From an uncultured Gammaproteobacteria bacterium (GTDB taxonomy: Bacteria > Pseudomonadota > Gammaproteobacteria > JAKDMP01), in contig CAWJLN010000008.1 in NCBI GenBank assembly GCA_963843735.1, positions 164,818 through 228,817 on the forward strand: DNA of 64,000 nucleotides. Reading direction: 5' to 3'. A program made the translations under genes and the position numbers. Positions 12,552 through 38,166 of this stretch are shown here, in pieces (positions within the stretch are counted from its first letter, which is position 1; each line of letters starts with the position of its first letter). The notes below the pieces were generated by a model. The model ran no database searches. It had not been told where the DNA came from and saw only the letters and a list, made by a program, of their open reading frames with translations.

Positions 12552-14414
12552 ATGAACCGTTACCCGCTGTGGAAAAACCTGCTGGTCGTCGTGATCGTGC
12601 TCCTCGGCTTCGTGTTCGCGATGCCGAATCTGTTCGGCGAATCCCCCGCCGTGCAGATCACCCGGATCGGTTCCGCCACCCTGCCGGCCGGCGCGCTTGA
12701 TCACGCCGTCGCCGCGCTGGATGCGGCGCATGTGGCGCATGAGCGCATCGTCCCGGGCTCCGACAAGAGCGTCATCGTTTTCGCCGATACCGACGATCAA
12801 CTGCACGCCAGCCAGGTGGTAAAGGATGCGCTCGGCGACGATTATTCCGTCGCCCTGAACCTGGTGCCGAATACGCCCGCATGGATGCAGTCGCTGGGAT
12901 TGAAGCCGATGGCCAAGGGCCTCGATCTCGTGGGTGGCATCTATTTCCGCCTGAAGGTGGATCTGGTGGCGGCGGTCGCGCAATCACTGGACAACGAAAT
13001 GCGCGACATTCAGGGCGCGTTGCGCGGCGCCGACGTGCGCTATTCAAATGCCGTGCGCGACGGCCAGACGCTCAAGTTTTCCTTCCGTGATTCCGCGGCG
13101 AGTTCGCAGGCCGAACAGGTCATTCGCAAGACTTACCCGAATGTCACCTTCAGCAGCTACGACGTAAAGGGCACCACGGTGCTGAATGTCATTCCGTCGC
13201 CCGCGGACCTTCAGCAGATACGCGATCTCGCAGTGGGCGAGAACGTTTCGGCACTGCGCCGCCGCGTGAACCAGCTTGGCGTTGCCGAACCCATCGTGCA
13301 ACGCCAGGGACAGGATTACGTGATCGTCGAGTTGCCCGGCATGCAGAATGCCGCCCGCGCGAAGCAGCGCCTGGGCGATACCGCCACCGTGCAGTTTCGC
13401 ATGGAGTACCTGGGCGCGAATCCCGCCGAGGCGAAACGCACGGGGCATATTCCGCTCGACGCCGAACTGTACGAGAGGAATGACGTGGGGCATCAGGGCG
13501 AGCCGATTCTGCTCAATCGCGAGATCGTGGCCTCCGGGCCGGAGATCACCGATGCGACCAGCGGATTCGATCAACAGAGCGGAACCCCGTCGGTGAACGT
13601 TTCGCTCAATTCCGCCGGTGCCTCGCGCATGGGCGACACCACGCGGCATAATCTCGGCAAACCGATGGCGGTGCTCTACATCCAGAATCGCACCGAGACC
13701 AAGCAGGTCAACGGCAAGCCGGTGCAGACCACCAAGCAGATCAAGCAGGTCATCAACGTGGCGACCATCCGCGGGGTCTTCTCCAACCGCTTCCAGATCA
13801 CCGGCCTGAGTCAGGAGGAGGCGCAGAGCCTTGCGCTCACTCTGCGCACGCCGCTGGCGGCGCCGGTCAGCATCGTCGAGGAGCAGACGATCGGTCCGAG
13901 CATGGGCAAACAGAACATCCGCTACGGTTTCACTGCCGTGGTGATCGGCTTCTTGCTCGTCGTGATCGGCATGGCGATCTACTACAAGGCCTTCGGCCTG
14001 ATCGCCGATGCCGCGCTGATCATGAACCTTATCCTGATCGTGGCGCTGCTGTCCTTGTTGCAGGCGACGCTGACCCTGCCCGGCATCGCCGGCATCGTGC
14101 TCACCGTCGGCATGGCGGTAGACGCGAACGTGCTGATCAACGAACGCATACGCGAGGAATTGCGCGTGGGCTCCTCGCCGCAGGCAGCAATCCAGGCCGG
14201 CTACCAGCACGCCATGGCCACCATCGTGGACGCCAACCTCACCACCCTGATCGCGGGGCTGGTGCTGTTCGCGATCGGCACCGGGCCGATCAAGGGATTC
14301 GCGGTGACGCTTTCGCTCGGTATCGTCACCTCCATGTTCACCGCGATCATGGGTACGCGCGCCATCGTTAATGGCGTATTCGGCGCGCGCCGTCTGAAAC
14401 GTCTGCCGGTGTAG
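12552..14414 (+). CDS. secD: protein translocase subunit SecD
   Basis: 620 aa; large periplasmic domain plus C-terminal 6-TM SecD/SecF family region. Confidence 0.95.
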   Translation: MNRYPLWKNLLVVVIVLLGFVFAMPNLFGESPAVQITRIGSATLPAGALDHAVAALDAAHVAHERIVPGSDKSVIVFADTDDQLHASQVVKDALGDDYSVALNLVPNTPAWMQSLGLKPMAKGLDLVGGIYFRLKVDLVAAVAQSLDNEMRDIQGALRGADVRYSNAVRDGQTLKFSFRDSAASSQAEQVIRKTYPNVTFSSYDVKGTTVLNVIPSPADLQQIRDLAVGENVSALRRRVNQLGVAEPIVQRQGQDYVIVELPGMQNAARAKQRLGDTATVQFRMEYLGANPAEAKRTGHIPLDAELYERNDVGHQGEPILLNREIVASGPEITDATSGFDQQSGTPSVNVSLNSAGASRMGDTTRHNLGKPMAVLYIQNRTETKQVNGKPVQTTKQIKQVINVATIRGVFSNRFQITGLSQEEAQSLALTLRTPLAAPVSIVEEQTIGPSMGKQNIRYGFTAVVIGFLLVVIGMAIYYKAFGLIADAALIMNLILIVALLSLLQATLTLPGIAGIVLTVGMAVDANVLINERIREELRVGSSPQAAIQAGYQHAMATIVDANLTTLIAGLVLFAIGTGPIKGFAVTLSLGIVTSMFTAIMGTRAIVNGVFGARRLKRLPV

Positions 14415-32115: not shown

Positions 32116-32826
32116 CTACCGGGAAGCGTCGTGCCGGCGTTGGAACTGGCGGGCGCCGAAAAGGTTTTCGAAGCCGGAGGCGCTTTCGGTGGCCGCGGCG
32201 CGCTCTTTGGCGAGCACCTCCAGTCCGCGCTTCACGGCCGGGCGTTCGGCGATCACGGCAACCCAGCGCTTGATACGCGGGTATTCTTCGATATCAACGG
32301 CACGGTTGTGATGCGAACGCAGCCAGGGGAAGATCGCGATGTCGGCGATCGTGTATTCGTCGCCGGCGACGTACTCGTTGCGTGCGAGTTGTTCGTCGAG
32401 CACACCGTACAGGCGGTTGGCCTCCCGCGTGTAGCGCTCGATGGCGTAGCTGATGCGTTCGGGCGCAGAGCCGCGAAAATGATGCACCTGTCCGAGCATC
32501 GGCCCGATGTGGCCCATCTGGAACATCAGCCATTGCAGCACGGCGTAATGTTTGTGCGGTTCGGCAGGGAAGAATCGCTTGACCTTTTCGGCAAGGTAGA
32601 TGAGGATGGCGCCGGATTCGGCGAGCGCCAGGGGCTTGCCGCCGGGGCCGTCCTCGTCCACGATGGCCGGTATCTTGTTGTTCGGGCTGATGGCGAGAAA
32701 TTCGGGCGCGAACTGGTCGCCCGCGCCGATGTTCACGGGATGTGCCTCGTATGCGAGCCCCGTTTCTTCGAGCATGATATGCACCTTGTGCCCGTTCGGG
32801 GTGGTCCAGGAATAAACTTGGATCAT
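32116..32826 (-). CDS. glutathione S-transferase family protein (YfcG/Nu-like)
   Basis: 236 aa; thioredoxin-fold N-terminus (IQVYSWTTPNGHKVHIMLEE) and alpha-helical C-domain. Confidence 0.8.
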   Translation of the reverse strand: MIQVYSWTTPNGHKVHIMLEETGLAYEAHPVNIGAGDQFAPEFLAISPNNKIPAIVDEDGPGGKPLALAESGAILIYLAEKVKRFFPAEPHKHYAVLQWLMFQMGHIGPMLGQVHHFRGSAPERISYAIERYTREANRLYGVLDEQLARNEYVAGDEYTIADIAIFPWLRSHHNRAVDIEEYPRIKRWVAVIAERPAVKRGLEVLAKERAAATESASGFENLFGARQFQRRHDASR

Positions 32827-32888
32827 CGGCTTGTCCTCGTCGCGTGTATGGAAACCATGATAGCCAAACCGCCTTTATGGAAGAGTGA

Positions 32889-33595
32889 ATGACGACCATG
32901 CAATTTGCACAGCAGGGCTTGCAGGACAGGTCGGACGGCCCGCTGGGCGATTTGCGCTGCCGCGGTTTGCGCAGCACGGCGCTTGCGCGTCTGCCGGAAC
33001 CGTCGCGCGCGCTGGCGGCGCTCCTGCCCGAAGGCGCGGCGCTGCTCGAATCGCGCACGGCGCACCCCGGCGCAGGCTATTCCTTTGTCGCCTTTTCTCC
33101 GCTCGCGGAATTGCGCCTGCAAGCCGAAGGCTTGTTGCTGAGCAGACCGGGGCGCGCGACGGAAACGCTTGCGGGACCGCCACTGGCGCGGCTCTTCGCC
33201 TGTCTGGAAGTGGTGCGGACGATGCCGGGCGCGCCCGAAGTGCCTTTCGCTGGTGGCTGGGTCGGTTACGTTGCGCATGAGCTGGGCTGCCGGATGATGG
33301 ACACGGCGCCCGCCGCCGCAGCGCCGCCCGCGCGGCCGCCGGGGCCGCTGGCCGTGTTCCGTCTTTACCGCGACGCGCTGGTGGTGGATCATCGCGCGGG
33401 CACGGCAACCCAGTATGCGAGCGATTGGGGCGAAGGCGCGGATGCGGTCATGGCGCGCCTGCATCATGCGCGCGAACGACTCGGGGCCGACGCGCCGGAA
33501 ATGGCAACGGCGCCGAGCGTCGTAGATAAGCCGGTCGCGACGCTCGATGCCGGAGAGTTCGCCGAACGGCAGGCGGCACTGCAAAAGCTGATCCG
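32889..33595 (+). pseudogene. N-terminal fragment of a chorismate-utilising enzyme (aminodeoxychorismate/anthranilate synthase component I-like); recognisable similarity ends at about 33,595
   Basis: LPEGAALLESRTAHPGAGYSFVAFSPLAELRLQAEG matches the N-terminal region of PabB/TrpE-family enzymes; no chorismate-binding catalytic domain follows. The frame runs on into reverse-strand IS110 sequence (ORF ends 33671). Confidence 0.55.
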
Positions 33596-34500
33596 CGCCA
33601 GTTCCCGCAATCGCTTGCAGCGTTTCGGCGTTGGGAAACCGGTTGCGGTCGTCGCCAATCCACGCCAGTAGGCGCGCTGGTGTAAGTGGACCGCGTGAGC
33701 CGGGAAAACCCTTCCACCAGGCAGTCTCCGGGTGGGTCATAAACACGGCGGGGAGTTCGCGTTCAAGGCGGCTGCGGGTGTGGTGTAGTTCGCGCAGCAG
33801 CGGAATGAGGATTTGTACCTGAACGATATAACCTGAACTCACGGCAGCGCTGGGCATAGGGGCCTGCAATTGCGCATAAATCAGGTCAAGGCGATCCATG
33901 AAACGGTAATTGTTGCGCTTCAAGAACAACTTCAATTGGTGCTTTGTCAGCGTCCGCGCTTGTTCCGGGGTCGGATGGGCTTCCAAGAATGCGAGGCAGA
34001 TGAGAACTCTCCACATGAGCAAATAACCAATTCGCAGCCGGGAAGTACTGGTAGAGCAAGTAATTCAAGCGATTACCGAGCCGACGTTGGTCAACAATCG
34101 TTTTGTCCAATGCCCGTGCCAGTTCGCGCAGATGAAGGACGAGCGGACTGGAGCGCGTGAGCGGTCGGCAGTCTGGGTCTTTGAGGCGCAGCAGGTGTGC
34201 CAGCAAATACGCATCTGACGGGTCCGATTTGGAGTGGCGAGGCCGTCGGTGCGCGACCACCACGGATGGGGTGATATAGAGCGCCCACCCTTGCGCCAGC
34301 ATCCAATCGACCAGTAACCCGTCGGAGCGCTCAATGTTGAACAGAATATTGGCAGCACCGTAGTGGTTGACGAGACTCTCGAAGCGCTGAAAACCGTGGT
34401 TGGACTGCTTAATTTCCAACTGCTGGACAATGGTACCGTCGTCGTCGAGCAGACACAGGTCATGCTTTTCTGTTGCCCAGTCAATACCAAGATAGTACAT
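33596..34500 (-). mobile_element. IS110-family (DEDD) transposase/recombinase gene, truncated at its 3' end and frameshifted (N-terminal ORF 33886..34500, C-terminal part in the frame of ORF 32823..34022)
   Basis: N-terminus MYYLGIDWATEKHDLCLLDDDG (RuvC-like DEDD domain); C-terminal-domain motifs ...LLAWIGDDRNRFPNAETLQAIAGTG stop abruptly at about 33,596 where pabB-like sequence begins. Confidence 0.7.
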
Positions 34501-34519
34501 GGGAAGCTCTCCTTGCTCC

Positions 34520-34900
34520 TACAGCCAAGAATTGCTGCCACATCGCTACGCACATATGCAGGCTACGGCGCTCATGGCGCAACAAGTTTACGATACGCAT
34601 AGAGATGCCCCACATCAGCGAACAGTCGCCCATAGTTCTCGTGGAACGGCAAGCTAAGGGTTCTGCGGATGTGAGTGGCAGACAAGACAAGTATGCCTGT
34701 TGTCTCCTCTGTCCGGCACACGTAGTGAGCGGGCGCATTGCAGCCGACCTTGCAGTCGGCTGCCCGTCCGCACTGCGGACGGCGGCTAGGCTTGGGTCGC
34801 AGGGGTGACGGTGGCCGCTGTCACCAGTCTACACCCCGACCCAGCTTGGAATGAGCCTCGCTCATGACCCAAGCCTAGCCAGCGAGCTAAAACCTTGCCA
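34520..34900 (-). ncRNA. candidate structured non-coding region immediately 5' of the IS110 recombinase (bridge-RNA-like candidate)
   Basis: Cluster of perfect hairpins: gcagccgac/gtcggctgc (34740-34763), ccgtccgc/gcggacgg (34764-34782), ggtgac/gtcacc (34804-34825), and a 15-bp inverted repeat ggctaggcttgggtc (34784-34798) / gacccaagcctagcc (34866-34880); no convincing ORF. Confidence 0.35.
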
Positions 34901-35651
34901 CCTCACGCGCCGGTGGAGGCTTACAATCGCGTCCACGTGGCGCACCTGCGCCGCGATCCGGGGTGATGGCTGGGCGGTGGGCAGGAATGGTCCCGGCGAC
35001 ATGACGCACCTACTTTTCTTACCTTCTGTAAAATTTTCTCCTTTGCATAGCTGATTTTGGCTGCAAAACGATTCTCTGCTGACTCTCTTTGGGCGAATCA
35101 GTACACCTACGTCTTGTCTCATCCGAGGCACAATCTGGACGCAAATCCGGCCAGGTTTTCGATGACGCGGGGCAAATGACAGCGGGTGCTCCTTGAGAGA
35201 TGAAAGGCGGCCAGAAAACGGTTTTCTGGAAATTTTAGTGCGAGTCTTTGCGCCCGTAATTGGCGCCTCTCGTCTGGCGGCTTCTCCCAAGTCTGCCGCA
35301 CTTTCGCTCACCCTCGTACTAAAATGGATTTTTACCGCCAGTTTTTACGCTTTTTTGACGGTTCTTTTTCGCATAATGACCGCATTTTTACGGGTGTGTG
35401 GATTACACTTCTCGCGTAAGGGATGAAGCGAGCAAGGTTTGTAGACATTTGAGTATCGGTCATGCTAAAAGCGAAGATACTCGTCGTTGACGATGAGCCA
35501 GCCATTCGCAAACTGCTTCAGTACAGGCTGATGGGTTCCCTTAATTGCGCTGCTGGGCAAACTTCGTTTCATCTTGAACGAATCCGGTATCGGCAGACCA
35601 ATAGCCAATACCGGATTTGCCAAGCCGAATAAGTGAGGACGGGACAACAAT

Positions 35652-36128
35652 ATGGCTGGCGAACCGGTCATTATGGTACAGATCGCGGATCATGACTGGA
35701 CTCTGAATGCCGTTCATGCTGCTTGCCAGAAAGCCCGCCAGCGTCACTGGATGGTCGCTCTGGTCAGCCTGATTCCGGTGCAGCACACCGCCTGGCTGGG
35801 AACCGACTGGGGTTACATGAACATAAGTCCTCAAGCTGCGCGTGAGCTTGAGGACTATCAGGCGACAGTGCTGGATTATGGCTTGAACTGCGAGATCGTG
35901 CGCTACCAATATACGGACTTCACCGATGCGCTGGCGGATGCGGCAGATCATCTGAATGCCCGGATCGTCTTCGCCCATTTCCCGCATACGCTGATTCCGG
36001 GGTGGCGGCATTTCCTGCTTTGGCTGCTCAACCGGCGTTTGGCGGAACACCAGCGACAGTTGATTCAGCCACCCGTTCGCGTGCTCCACTCTGCGCCGAC
36101 GCTGGCACCCGAAATCGATCCTCTCTAA
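35652..36128 (+). CDS. hypothetical protein, weakly universal-stress-protein-like
   Basis: 158 aa; alternating hydrophobic beta-strand/helix pattern; the overlapping minus-strand ORF 35541..36089 is an alternative; low confidence. Confidence 0.3.
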   Translation: MAGEPVIMVQIADHDWTLNAVHAACQKARQRHWMVALVSLIPVQHTAWLGTDWGYMNISPQAARELEDYQATVLDYGLNCEIVRYQYTDFTDALADAADHLNARIVFAHFPHTLIPGWRHFLLWLLNRRLAEHQRQLIQPPVRVLHSAPTLAPEIDPL

Positions 36129-36232
36129 AGCGTCATCTTGACGGATTTTTGACGACTTACTCCGCCATTCTTGCAGATTTTTGACGCCTGCCTCTGCTAC
36201 AACTATCAGATCATAGGAAACGGAGACATTCG

Positions 36233-36322
36233 ATGGATGGGCTGTTCATGGGTCTGGCTGTGCTCTTTTTTGCCCTCTGCTGGGGCTTGATCGAACTGGC
36301 CGACCGGATTTCAGGAAGTTGA
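36233..36322 (+). CDS. 29-aa hydrophobic small ORF immediately upstream of kdpF (not in ORF track; below length cutoff)
   Basis: ATG 36233 with GGAAACGGAG RBS; MDGLFMGLAVLFFALCWGLIELADRISGS*; stop 36320-36322, one nt before the kdpF ATG. Confidence 0.35.
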   Translation: MDGLFMGLAVLFFALCWGLIELADRISGS

Positions 36323-36323
36323 G

Positions 36324-36416
36324 ATGAACTGGTTGTACCTCATCGCGGGTCTGGTGGCGCTGCTGCTGCTGATCTATCTGGTGGTCGCGCTGCTGAAACC
36401 GGAGTTGTTCTCATGA
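36324..36416 (+). CDS. kdpF: potassium-transporting ATPase subunit F
   Basis: MNWLYLIAGLVALLLLIYLVVALLKPELFS (single TM, KdpF-like length and C-terminal ALLKPE.F); stop overlaps kdpA ATG. Confidence 0.7.
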   Translation: MNWLYLIAGLVALLLLIYLVVALLKPELFS

Positions 36417-38166
36417 TTCCGATCCCTAACGGAATATTGCAGATCGCTTGCTACCTTGCCGTGCTGTTTCCTGCTGGTGAAGCCGCTTGGCGCGTATATG
36501 GCGAACGTCTACGCCGGGCGGTCGATAGTCAACCGGGTGTTTGCCCCGGTCGAGCGTTGGCTGTATCGTCTACTCGGCACGCGCGCCGATCTGGAGATGA
36601 ACTGGAAAACCTACGCGCTGGCGCTGCTGGTCTTCAACGCTTTGGGGCTGCTGGCGGTTTATGCCTTGCAGCGATTGCAAGGGTCGCTGCCGCTCAACCC
36701 GCTGCATCTCGGCGCGGTGTCGCCTGATTCAGCTTTCAACACGGCGGTCAGCTTTGCCAGCAACACCAACTGGCAGGGCTACGGCGGCGAAACCACCCTG
36801 AGTTACCTGACGCAGATGGCCGGACTGACGGTGCAGAACTTCGTGTCGGCGGCGACAGGAATGGCGATTTTGATCGCGCTGATTCGCGGTTTGGCGCGCC
36901 GCACGATGCAGACGATCGGCAATTTCTGGGTCGATCTGACGCGGACGATCCTCTACATCCTGCTGCCACTGGCGATCATCGGCGCGGTGTTCCTGGTGTC
37001 GCAAGGGGTGGTGCAGACTTTCGCCAGTTCCCAAACGGCGCAGTTGGTCGAGCCGGTGCGCGCTGCCAACGGCAGTACCGCCACCGAGCAGCAGATCGCG
37101 GTTGGCCCGGTGGCCTCGCAGGTCATGATCAAGCAGTTGGGCACCAACGGCGGTGGCTTCTTCAACACCAACTCGGCGCACCCTTTCGAGAACCCAACGC
37201 CGCTGTCGAATTTTGTCGAGCTGCTGGCGATCCTGCTGATCCCGGCGGCGCTGTGCTATACCTTCGGCCAAATGATCGGTGACACACGGCAGGGCTGGGC
37301 GCTGCTGGCGGCCATGACGCTGGTGTTCGTCGTGCTGCTGGGCGTGACCTATGCGGCGGAGCAAAGCGGCAATTCGCGCTTCCCGGCGACAGTCGATCAA
37401 AGCGCCAGCGCTGCCCAGTCGGGCGGCAACATGGAAGGCAAGGAAACCCGCTTCGGCATCGCCAATTCGGCGCTGTGGGCAACGGCGACGACCGCCGCGT
37501 CCAACGGTTCGGTCAATTCGATGCATGACTCGTATACGCCGCTCGGCGGCCTCGCCCCGCTGTGGCTGATCCAGCTGGGCGAGGTGATTTACGGCGGTGT
37601 CGGCTCCGGCCTGTACGGGCTGCTGATGTTCGCCATCGTGGCGGTGTTCGTCGCCGGGCTGATGGTCGGGCGCACGCCGGAATATCTGGGCAAGAAGATC
37701 GAAGCCTACGAGATGAAAATGGCGTCGATTGCCATCCTGGTGCCGCCGGTGCTGGTGCTGCTGGGGACGGCGGTCGCGGTGGTCGCGCAGCCGGGACGTT
37801 GCCTCAATCCTGAATACGCAGCCCGCCGCGCACGGCTTCAGCGAAGTGCTGTACGCCTTCTCGTCGGCGGGCAATAACAACGGCAGCGCCTTCGCCGGGC
37901 TGAACGCCAATACGCCGTTCTACAACATCGCGTTAGGGATCGCCATGCTGTTCGCCCGCTACTGGGTGGCGCTGCCGGTGCTGGCAATCGCCGGGTCGCT
38001 AGCACAGAAGAAGATCATCCCGGCCAGCGCAGGCACGCTGCCGACCCATACGCCGCTGTTCGTCATCATGCTGATCGGAATTGTGGTGGTCGTCGGCGCG
38101 CTGACGTTCTTCCCGGCGCTGGCGCTGGGGCCGATTGTCGAACATCTCATGATGGTGAGTCGCTGA
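36413..38166 (+). pseudogene. kdpA: potassium-transporting ATPase subunit A, two frameshifts (about 36,465-36,475 and about 37,795-37,805)
   Basis: N-terminus [18 protein letters not shown] in the frame of ORF 36413; the body ([13 protein letters not shown]...EMNWKTY...[27 protein letters not shown]...) in the frame of ORF 36456..37877; the C-terminal 120 aa ([34 protein letters not shown]...) in the frame of ORF 37729..38166. Confidence 0.85.

Follow-up and report, generated by a model that had tools for sequence, protein, structure and literature searches.

Bridge RNAs have been predicted for most IS110 elements, and the bridge RNA of IS621 has two loops, the first of which recognizes the target and the second the joined element ends; the 3′ side of the loops is complementary to the core and the right half-site (PMC11208160). 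IS621 carries this RNA in a long left end, 5′ of the gene for a DEDD/serine recombinase (PMC11208160, PMC11208158). In the IS1111 group, the guide RNA (bridge RNA or seekRNA) is found 3′ of the gene in a long right end (PMC11208160), and the elements have sub-terminal inverted repeats of 7 to 17 bp at both ends. For ISPpu10, a hairpin in the target has been described as a requirement, and such hairpins as widespread in the IS110 family (bioRxiv 10.64898/2026.03.19.712850).

Here we analyzed a stretch of DNA of 64 kb (the window), in which the region upstream of an IS110 recombinase gene had been put forward as a candidate bridge RNA. We found that this region has homologues, that its structure covaries among them, that it has a two-loop layout and that its loops match the junctions of the element. 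Positions 34501-34880 (minus strand) thus very probably represent the left non-coding end of a Chloroflexota-associated insertion sequence (IS) of the IS110 group and encode its bridge RNA, a reading that we favor because the sequences of four loop segments agree with the target and donor junctions of the respective elements and covary with them. As a bridge RNA is expected for the IS110 family, the kind of element is already known; the clade is an uncharacterized one from Chloroflexota, and its leader is unusually long. Like IS621, the window element has its predicted RNA in a long left end, 5′ of a DEDD/serine recombinase gene. It shares the recombinase superfamily and the two-loop logic with the IS1111 group, but its RNA lies on the other side of the gene and its right end is only about 150 nt long. 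With neither a guide RNA in a long right end nor repeats at both ends, it falls outside that group.

The recombinase gene and its relatives

The DEDD domain of IS110 (PF01548, E = 5e-25) was identified on an ORF that starts at the ATG at position 34500 of the minus strand, behind a ribosome-binding site that is kept in the alignment of the relatives. The gene features are as follows.

34509..34514, minus strand: ribosome-binding site AAGGAG, 8 nt 5′ of ATG 34500
33601..34500, minus strand: IS110-family DEDD recombinase pseudogene, frameshift near 34020, cut at 33601

A protein search returned only 44 relatives, and scans of genomes and metagenomes yielded 67 loci (numbered L001 onward), about 35 of which were at least 50% identical. 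The named loci among these 35 were all from Chloroflexota (Anaerolineae, Aggregatilineales, Ca. Flexifilum), in genomes assembled from metagenomes. We distinguished a near clade, made up of the window, L002-L008, L015, L038-L040 and L066, plus L001 and L037, from a distant clade with about 55% protein identity to it. L001 is the closest full-length protein match and contributed little beyond about -240 on the upstream side, where it is separated from its neighbours by an ISL3 element.

The full-length recombinase of L004 has 400 aa and aligns along its entire length with NF033542, "IS110 family RNA-guided transposase," at a score of 129.8 bits that is slightly below the cut-off of 140. Its sole relative of solved structure was IS621 (8wt6, E = 3e-6), to whose recombinase it is thus only distantly related. 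Public genomes contain an intact recombinase of 400 aa, one source being JADKGC010000018.1.

Ends of the element, core dinucleotide and target

The original prediction had suggested comparing copies to delimit the element, and this comparison placed the left terminus at 34880. L012 and L065 lie in contexts without the usual upstream flank, and their homology to the relatives starts exactly at the predicted left junction. L083, a viral contig, contains an unoccupied site, ..GGCGAGCTTTTAGCTCG-CT-CCCCACCCCGCCG.., in which the usual left flank is directly joined to the usual right flank. Since the homology of this empty site (TTAGCTCG-CT-CCCC) to the window stops at 34881, the first base of the element is 34880. 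Other homology boundaries agreed with the predicted ends, namely, that of L012 versus L013 at -340 and those of right ends at +1348 to +1376. By these boundaries, positions 34501-34880 of the minus strand are the complete 380-nt left end of an IS110-family element. Two other placements of the left end, at 34946, where the homology between the window and L002 ends, and at about 35010 (-510), the boundary between L002 and L004, were ruled out by L012, L065 and L083.

In 12 of 16 elements, one and the same dinucleotide (CG or CT) flanks the element at either end. Our best reading is a 2-nt C-N core that would be duplicated at both junctions as in IS621, whose core, in contrast, is a fixed CT; the assignment is not certain because the other 4 elements carry different dinucleotides at their two junctions. 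The overlaps of the guides could also be read as a core of GT (right) and GC (left), whose asymmetry would give directionality. This candidate was dropped, as the C-N dinucleotide one base further on is the one that is identical in the 12 elements and fits L083.

The sequence beyond the terminus, 34881-35010, is common to the flanks of L004, L006 and L008 and to the empty site of L083. As it is also common to L002, L004 and others, we considered it as a part of the IS, and rejected this view in favor of conserved target DNA. In most near-clade loci, a corresponding right half of about 133 nt is found behind the right end, with the hairpin GGCGCTGCTGCnAGGCAGCGCC as its last feature. On this comparative evidence, 34881-35010 makes up the left half of a conserved element of ~245 nt that has multiple hairpins and serves as the insertion site of these ISs. 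The left target lies within the 3′ arm of a hairpin of the form GCnAGC-GTTTTA-GCTnGC, and the hairpins of the target element covary among loci. The features next to the left terminus are the following.

34881-34882, minus strand: core dinucleotide CT (best reading), next to the left terminus of the element
34883-34890, minus strand: left target TTAGCTCG, in the 3′ arm of a hairpin with the loop GTTTTA
34881..35010, minus strand: left half of the hairpin-rich target element, flanking DNA outside the IS; its 5′ hairpins are degenerate in the window

The situation resembles that of ISPpu10, where the left target also lies in one arm of a hairpin and the target is also a repeated intergenic palindromic element, but the ISPpu10 target is a short REP and not a multi-hairpin element of this length. 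An Rfam scan of the empty target site gave no match. A search of viral contigs with the 221-aa neighbour protein gave none either, and Pfam and NCBIfam contained no family for this protein.

A promoter pattern at the joined ends

Past the stop codon, the right end is short (about 150 nt) and carries only a -35 box and the left half of the donor. When the right end was joined to the left end, TTGACA-17 nt-TAnnnT (TA(G/A/C)nnT) appeared in 15 of 17 loci, which is a sequence pattern only. Circularization would thus bring the TTGACA of the right end to 17 nt from the TAGGCT of the left end and generate a promoter for the RNA and the recombinase, much as in IS621, where the right end supplies the -35 box and the left end the -10 box, and only the circle unites the two. 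No sigma-70-like promoter was found in the linear window copy, and no terminator-like hairpin with a T run was found in the region of the window copy. The junction of ISPpu10, in contrast, has a hairpin and a U tract that were described as a terminator.

Conserved structure of the predicted RNA

About 250 nt 5′ of the ATG are conserved in about 35 loci of both clades, with visible compensatory changes. As the original prediction had proposed, we folded the minus strand: a 420-nt RNA had a free energy of -197 kcal/mol, compared with -169 ± 6 for dinucleotide shuffles (z = -4.6, 0/100). We then aligned 11 near-clade sequences from the left junction to the ATG. RNAalifold predicted 96 pairs in this alignment, 33 of them compensatory, and 90 pairs were kept for testing. 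In the latter, 96.7% of the cells were paired, versus 34 to 40% when the partner was slid by 1 to 3 columns. Homologous IS copies do covary, with changes on both sides in 33 of the 90 pairs compared with 13.8 ± 2.4 after shuffling (0/500) and 3 to 5 after sliding, figures whose independence is overstated by the relatedness of the loci. G·U combinations outnumbered A·C combinations by 80 to 9 in the tested pairs, an excess that fits folding of the recombinase-sense strand. The window retains 88 of the 90 consensus pairs, by which measure its RNA gene is itself intact.

In an alignment of both clades, 14 of 20 pairs were compensatory, and P1, P5 and the two loop arms were present in both. The outer stem of the donor arm was not recovered in this alignment, in which the clades differ in length, and has near-clade support only (helix 12). 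Helices 8 to 13 were 94 to 100% paired, with 15 compensatory pairs, and P5 (helix 8) comprised 12 pairs, 6 of which had changed on both sides.

From the left terminus, the order is P1 with two small hairpins, P2, P3 and then P4, which encloses P5 and two arms. In each arm, a large internal loop separates an outer stem from an inner hairpin. The predicted core features are listed below.

34536..34718, minus strand: predicted bridge-RNA core, ~183 nt, with P4 around P5 and the target and donor arms
34715-34718 with 34536-34539, minus strand: closing helix P4
34679..34711, minus strand: P5 5′ stem-loop with the conserved loop GGCATACTT, at the position of the IS621 5′ stem-loop
34609..34675, minus strand: target-binding-loop (TBL) arm, outer stem and inner hairpin GTTCCACGAGAAC (34635-34647)
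34649-34657, minus strand: predicted left target guide (LTG) TTAGCTTGC, 5′ side of loop 1
34625-34631, minus strand: predicted right target guide (RTG) GGGCGAC, 3′ side of loop 1
34540..34608, minus strand: donor-binding-loop (DBL) arm, outer stem and inner hairpin GCGCCATGAGCGC (34568-34580)
34582-34590, minus strand: predicted left donor guide (LDG) TAAACTTGT, 5′ side of loop 2
34558-34567, minus strand: predicted right donor guide (RDG) CGTAGCCTGC, 3′ side of loop 2

The core has a length of ~183 nt, compared with 177 nt for the IS621 RNA, from which it differs by the closing helix P4 around three arms. The bridge RNA of ISPpu10 was reported to have no 5′ stem-loop, whereas the RNA described here has P5 and a long leader.

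The outcome of the suggested search with covariance models depended on the source of the model. Scanning positions 32500-36500 with Rfam 15 (E ≤ 10) gave chance matches only and no family match. A model that we built from 27 other elements, with the window and L002 left out, had a single match in the 64 kb, at 34538-34675 of the minus strand (123 bits, E about 9e-33). Because Rfam 15 gave no match, membership rests on the alignment and the model made in this analysis.

Loop segments match and covary with the element junctions

For the comparison of loops and junctions, we use LE and RE for the left and right non-coding ends, LT and RT for the target to the left and right of the core, and LD and RD for the last bases of RE and the first bases of LE; LTG, RTG, LDG and RDG would read LT, RT, LD and RD, respectively.

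In loop 2, LDG reproduces the 9 nt that terminate RE, and in most intact loci it does so with 0 mismatches; the identical 9-mer is found about 140 nt past the stop codon, immediately after TTGACA. Variants of LDG change together with this 9-mer (TAAACCTGT, TAAAAACGT, TAAAATCGT and TAAAGATGT). On the other side of loop 2, the reverse complement of RDG equals the core and the start of LE, and covaries with them (GGCTA, TGCTA, TGTTA, TGGTA, TCACTA).

In loop 1, LTG equals LT in about 30 loci, including those with the variants TTACCT and TGTG, with a frequent mismatch at position 7; the left-target variants across loci are TTAGCT, TTACCT and TGTG. We had at one time regarded the likeness of LTG to the hairpin TTTTAGCTCGC, which covaries freely, as a coincidence, and dropped this view as LT variants track LTG variants. 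RTG consists of variable bases followed by a conserved GAC. Its reverse complement equals the right flank over 6 to 9 nt in L003, L004, L005, L007, L051 and L066, whose sequences differ; the matches include GTCGCCCAA, GTCGCTCCC, TCGCCAGA, GTCGACAC and GTCAACCC. On average, the RTG of a locus matched its own right flank at 3.17 of 6 variable positions, versus 1.75 of 6 for permuted combinations (0/20000), a comparison in which the relatedness of the loci overstates independence. In several loci of the distant clade (L011, L044, L047-49), the match of RTG to the right flank did not extend past GTC; among the distant-clade loci, some had a match at GTC or GTCTT only, and a few had none at all.

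LTG combined with the reverse complement of RDG gives a predicted left junction, which was found 340 to 395 nt 5′ of the ATG in 30 of 36 sequences, the window included, with 2 to 5 mismatches over 17 positions, and both of its halves covary. In the window's own left junction, 8 of 9 positions of LT and 8 of 10 positions of RD agree with the guides, and the right junction is missing. The original prediction held that this region could disclose the target and donor specificity of the element. This applies to LT and RD, which can be read from the window. The left half of the donor and the match to the right target are readable only from L002 or other relatives because the window copy has no right end. 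Thus, LD for the window guide was read from L002, a copy that is 96% identical. From the RTG of the window, the predicted target is TTAGCTNG-CG-CCC(A), the site at which the element of L004 is inserted.

These matches bear on another reading of the region, namely, that it is an ordinary 5′ leader that acts in cis on the transposase mRNA, such as an attenuator or an insulator against read-through, without guide function. Its position directly 5′ of the ribosome-binding site and the ATG would suit such a leader, as would the GC-rich perfect hairpins P2 and P3, which are attenuator-like, and the lack of a detectable promoter in the linear copy. However, this reading leaves unexplained why four loop segments match and covary with termini and flanks in about 30 loci, and why the layout has two loops as in IS621; nor does the region contain the terminator hairpin and T run that it would lead one to look for. 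We thus regard it as improbable for the region as a whole. It may apply to the part with P1 to P3 alone.

In its loops, the predicted bridge RNA departs from that of IS621 in several respects. The 5′ side of loop 1 is nearly invariant among the elements of the Chloroflexota clade, and therefore the left target is conserved. RTG extends over as many as 9 nt in near-clade elements, and its conserved 3′ AC pairs with the last two bases of RE, at the position of the handshake guide of IS621.

Proposed mode of action

The matches suggest how the predicted bridge RNA might work. Loop 1 would read the target: TTAGCTTGC on its 5′ side is in the sense of the left target, and its 3′ side (GGGCG-AC) would be complementary to the core and the right target and also to the last two bases of RE. 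Loop 2 would read the joined ends, as TAAACTTGT on its 5′ side repeats the 9 terminal nt of RE and GTAGCCTGC on its 3′ side would pair with the core and the first bases of LE (GGCTAGG). The predicted donor is TAAACTTGT-CG-GGCTAGG, and the predicted form of the target is TTACCTAG-CG-CCCAAC. By inference from IS621, the DEDD/serine recombinase with its RNA would pair the circular element with 5′-TTAGCTNG-C(G/T)-CCC..-3′. Strand exchange would take place at the 2-nt core, after the circle junction had been bound by loop 2 and the hairpin site in the target by loop 1.

By analogy, transcription, protein binding and catalysis are expected to proceed as in IS621, because the protein, the RNA layout, the guide logic and the junction promoter are homologous. 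The element thus offers a worked example of a bridge RNA from Chloroflexota, distant from IS621, whose guide code could be read from natural sequence.

The hairpins of the leader

The original prediction was based on a series of perfect stem-loops, said to be nested within a 15-bp inverted repeat in a region with no credible ORF. Only overlapping mechanical ORFs of 49 to 111 aa were present, and the changes between relatives are not codon-patterned. We conclude that the upstream region is non-coding because the indels that separate the relatives are non-triplet and the changes in pairs are compensatory. The 15-bp perfect inverted repeat was found as described, with arms 67 nt apart at 34784-34798 and 34866-34880. 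The stem-loops resolved into two with perfect 9-bp stems, at 34740-34763 and 34764-34782, and shorter ones at 34804-34825 and 34852-34864. Only the two shorter hairpins are nested within the repeat; the two 9-bp hairpins adjoin its 3′ side. All these perfect hairpins, at 34740-34880, belong to a clade-specific 5′ leader outside the guide loops, and the guide-bearing part is 34536-34718. The left end thus differs from that of IS621 by its length of 380 nt and by an extra structured leader of 161 nt, whose features are as follows.

34719-34880, minus strand: leader, 161 nt, P1 to P3, structured, between the terminus and the core RNA
34866..34880, minus strand: P1 5′ arm GGCTAGGCTTGGGTC, which is the left terminus and the right half of the donor (RD), GGCTAGG...
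34872-34877, minus strand: -10-like hexamer TAGGCT, inside the P1 5′ arm
34852..34864, minus strand: hairpin P1a (TGAGC-gag-GCTCA), within P1, helix 3 of the alignment
34804..34825, minus strand: hairpin P1c (GGTGAC...GTCACC), within P1, sequence differing between relatives
34784..34798, minus strand: P1 3′ arm GACCCAAGCCTAGCC, complementary to the LE terminus
34764..34782, minus strand: hairpin P2, perfect 9-bp stem, near-clade-specific
34740..34763, minus strand: hairpin P3, perfect 9- to 10-bp stem with the loop CTGCAAGG, near-clade-specific

Both-side changes were found in 5 of the 13 pairs of P1 (helix 1), which were 100% paired, in 3 of the 7 pairs of P2 (helix 5) and in 5 of the 10 pairs of P3 (helix 6). 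No counterparts of P2 and P3 could be aligned in the distant clade. P1 is kept with covariation in both clades, across their protein identity of ~55%.

Perfect GC-rich palindromes of this sort look like REP units, and the flank at 34881-35010 truly belongs to a repeated structured element. One might therefore take the hairpins for a REP- or MITE-like palindromic repeat that lies upstream of the gene by chance. However, no second copies of the hairpin sequences were found elsewhere in the 64-kb window, and because the hairpins of 34740-34880 are unique there, they do not represent a dispersed repeat. They also lie inside the mapped ends of the element, and every near-clade element has them, with compensatory changes, at a constant position with respect to the recombinase gene, which makes a chance repeat extremely unlikely.

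Through P1, the terminus and the -10 box pair with a segment that lies 67 nt further downstream, and covariation extends to the outermost pairs of this stem. Its 5′ arm lies upstream of the start site expected from the junction promoter. P1 might be a helix that forms in read-through RNA, a feature that acts in the DNA, or a pairing of the RNA with left-end DNA. If it acted in DNA, it might be a sub-terminal inverted repeat or an extruded hairpin recognized by the recombinase, in the manner of IS1111 or IS200/IS605 elements. Such a role would account for a 5′ arm that is the terminus itself together with the -10 box and that precedes the junction-promoter transcript, and covariation is blind to whether RNA-RNA, RNA-DNA or DNA-DNA pairing is involved. 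However, both arms of P1 are at one end of the element, whereas the sub-terminal repeats of IS1111 occur once per end, and the few non-Watson-Crick cells of the leader are mostly G·U (22 versus 3 A·C), which fits a single strand of the recombinase sense. Action of P1 in DNA is thus rather unlikely, and it concerns P1 only, leaving the guide loops of the predicted bridge RNA untouched.

We also considered, as a speculative and probably incorrect reading, that the leader is a state-sensing switch that couples the activity of the RNA to the integrated or circular state of the element. In the read-through transcript of an integrated copy, the terminus would be transcribed and be bound by the 3′ arm, so that P1 would form. 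A transcript from the junction promoter, without the 5′ arm of P1, would leave the 3′ arm (34784-34798) free, and the latter might then serve, for instance, as an extended donor guide on left-end DNA or refold the RNA.

State of the window copy

The window ORF comprises 204 aa; a frameshift is present near 34020, after which reading continues in another frame. The homology of the gene stops at 33601, before the conserved RRSGKS serine motif. The window thus has no segment that aligns with the serine-containing region of IS621, PF02371 gave no match on the window ORF, and RE is absent. L002, on a metagenome contig, aligns with the window only from 34946 down to 33601. Beyond this breakpoint, L002 has another 300 nt of the gene, including the RRSGKS motif, and then a right end. 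L086, a short Logan contig, is 100% identical to 34551-33601 and then goes on as IS sequence. The breakpoint at 33601 reflects either a rearrangement of one copy or an assembly join.

The window copy has neither the intact DEDD and Tnp domains with the catalytic serine nor the two ends of a functional IS. Because its recombinase is frameshifted and the element is cut off at 33601, it is, as judged from its sequence, a broken, non-functional relic that would be unable to move by itself. The structured region is thus best explained as a guide-RNA gene in a dead copy and not as a new class of feature.

At 33600, the window becomes an opposite-strand ORF for the N-terminal part of an anthranilate/aminodeoxychorismate-synthase-like protein. 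A shift in GC content, from about 0.55 to 0.70, occurs at the same position.

Target element

In L083, a viral contig from IMG/VR carrying an empty insertion site, we found an unoccupied copy of the ~245-nt structured target element (12700-13060, minus strand), which gave no match in Rfam. The element comprises several covarying hairpins and could be repeated or mobile in its own right. We compared the flank of the insertion sequence (IS) fragment in the window, which retains part of the target element, with L002, a metagenomic copy, at 34882-34916 and 34947-35010. Locally, divergence between the two is much greater, with approximately 50% identity over 64 nt, vs 96% over the remainder. Moreover, one hairpin of the window flank combines a 5′ arm resembling that of near-clade locus L039 (GGCAAG) with the 3′ arm found in L003, of the same clade (GCTCGC), and its pairing is therefore broken. 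At the sequence level, the local divergence together with the mixed arms suggests that this flank has undergone decay or patchwork recombination.

The dinucleotides proposed as the 2-nt core at the element ends differ between the two junctions of L003, L005, L006, and L007 (CT or CC on the left, CG or CA on the right), unlike those of the other 12 elements. Donor and target cores that differ at the second base may account for these mismatches.

Neighboring genes and additional element ends

At least 14 loci, drawn from both clades, carry a pair of divergently oriented genes upstream of the target element, with 37 to 85% identity (L004 [800-1836], L006, L007, L008, L009, L011, L013, L014, L015, L016, L017, L049, L053, and L001). 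One gene codes for a 124-residue protein with a weak ribbon-helix-helix signature, and the other for a 221-residue protein with an HLHTHVILPG motif and no family match. Neither the window nor L002 has the pair, and it is also missing at the empty site of L083. Other ISs lie upstream of the copies in L001 and L002. L002 has an IS21 istA/istB pair upstream of the flank (L002 2145-3999). In L001, of the near clade, an ISL3 transposase gene (L001 1033-2622) precedes the recombinase ATG by 380 nt, and there the homology to the left end of the near clade breaks off.

Two loci contain a second left end. That of L046 (2440-2800) is complete, includes the bridge RNA region, and follows the first element ~850 nt downstream; that of L066 (4768-4930, minus strand) is an inverted, truncated fragment without a gene.

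Lower-GC island and its boundaries

The IS fragment lies in an island of lower GC content (33601-36400; 0.48 to 0.58), flanked by regions at 0.65 to 0.70 with NAD kinase-like, GST-like, and kdpA-like ORFs. No family match was obtained for the ORFs at 35541-36128 within the island, and the named relatives of the IS all belong to Chloroflexota genomes assembled from metagenomes. The island may have originated either by horizontal transfer or by a mis-join.

An AT-richer flank (35202-35325) contains two inverted repeats:

35211-35229, perfect 9-bp palindrome, CCAGAAAAC-g-GTTTTCTGG
35232-35244 and 35313-35325, 13-nt repeat, inverted

Between the arms of the latter, at 35247-35298, a Guanidine-III match scored below threshold (14.9 bits, E = 8.9) and most probably reflects chance.

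Within 33595-33675, the IS fragment ends abruptly at position 33601, abutting the N-terminal part of the following ORF:

32889-33671, plus strand, anthranilate/aminodeoxychorismate-synthase-like ORF, PF04715 only

This join reflects a rearrangement or, alternatively, a chimeric assembly. The GC content there rises from ~0.55 to 0.70, and a Logan contig (L086) that is 100% identical to 34551-33601 continues with IS sequence beyond that point.
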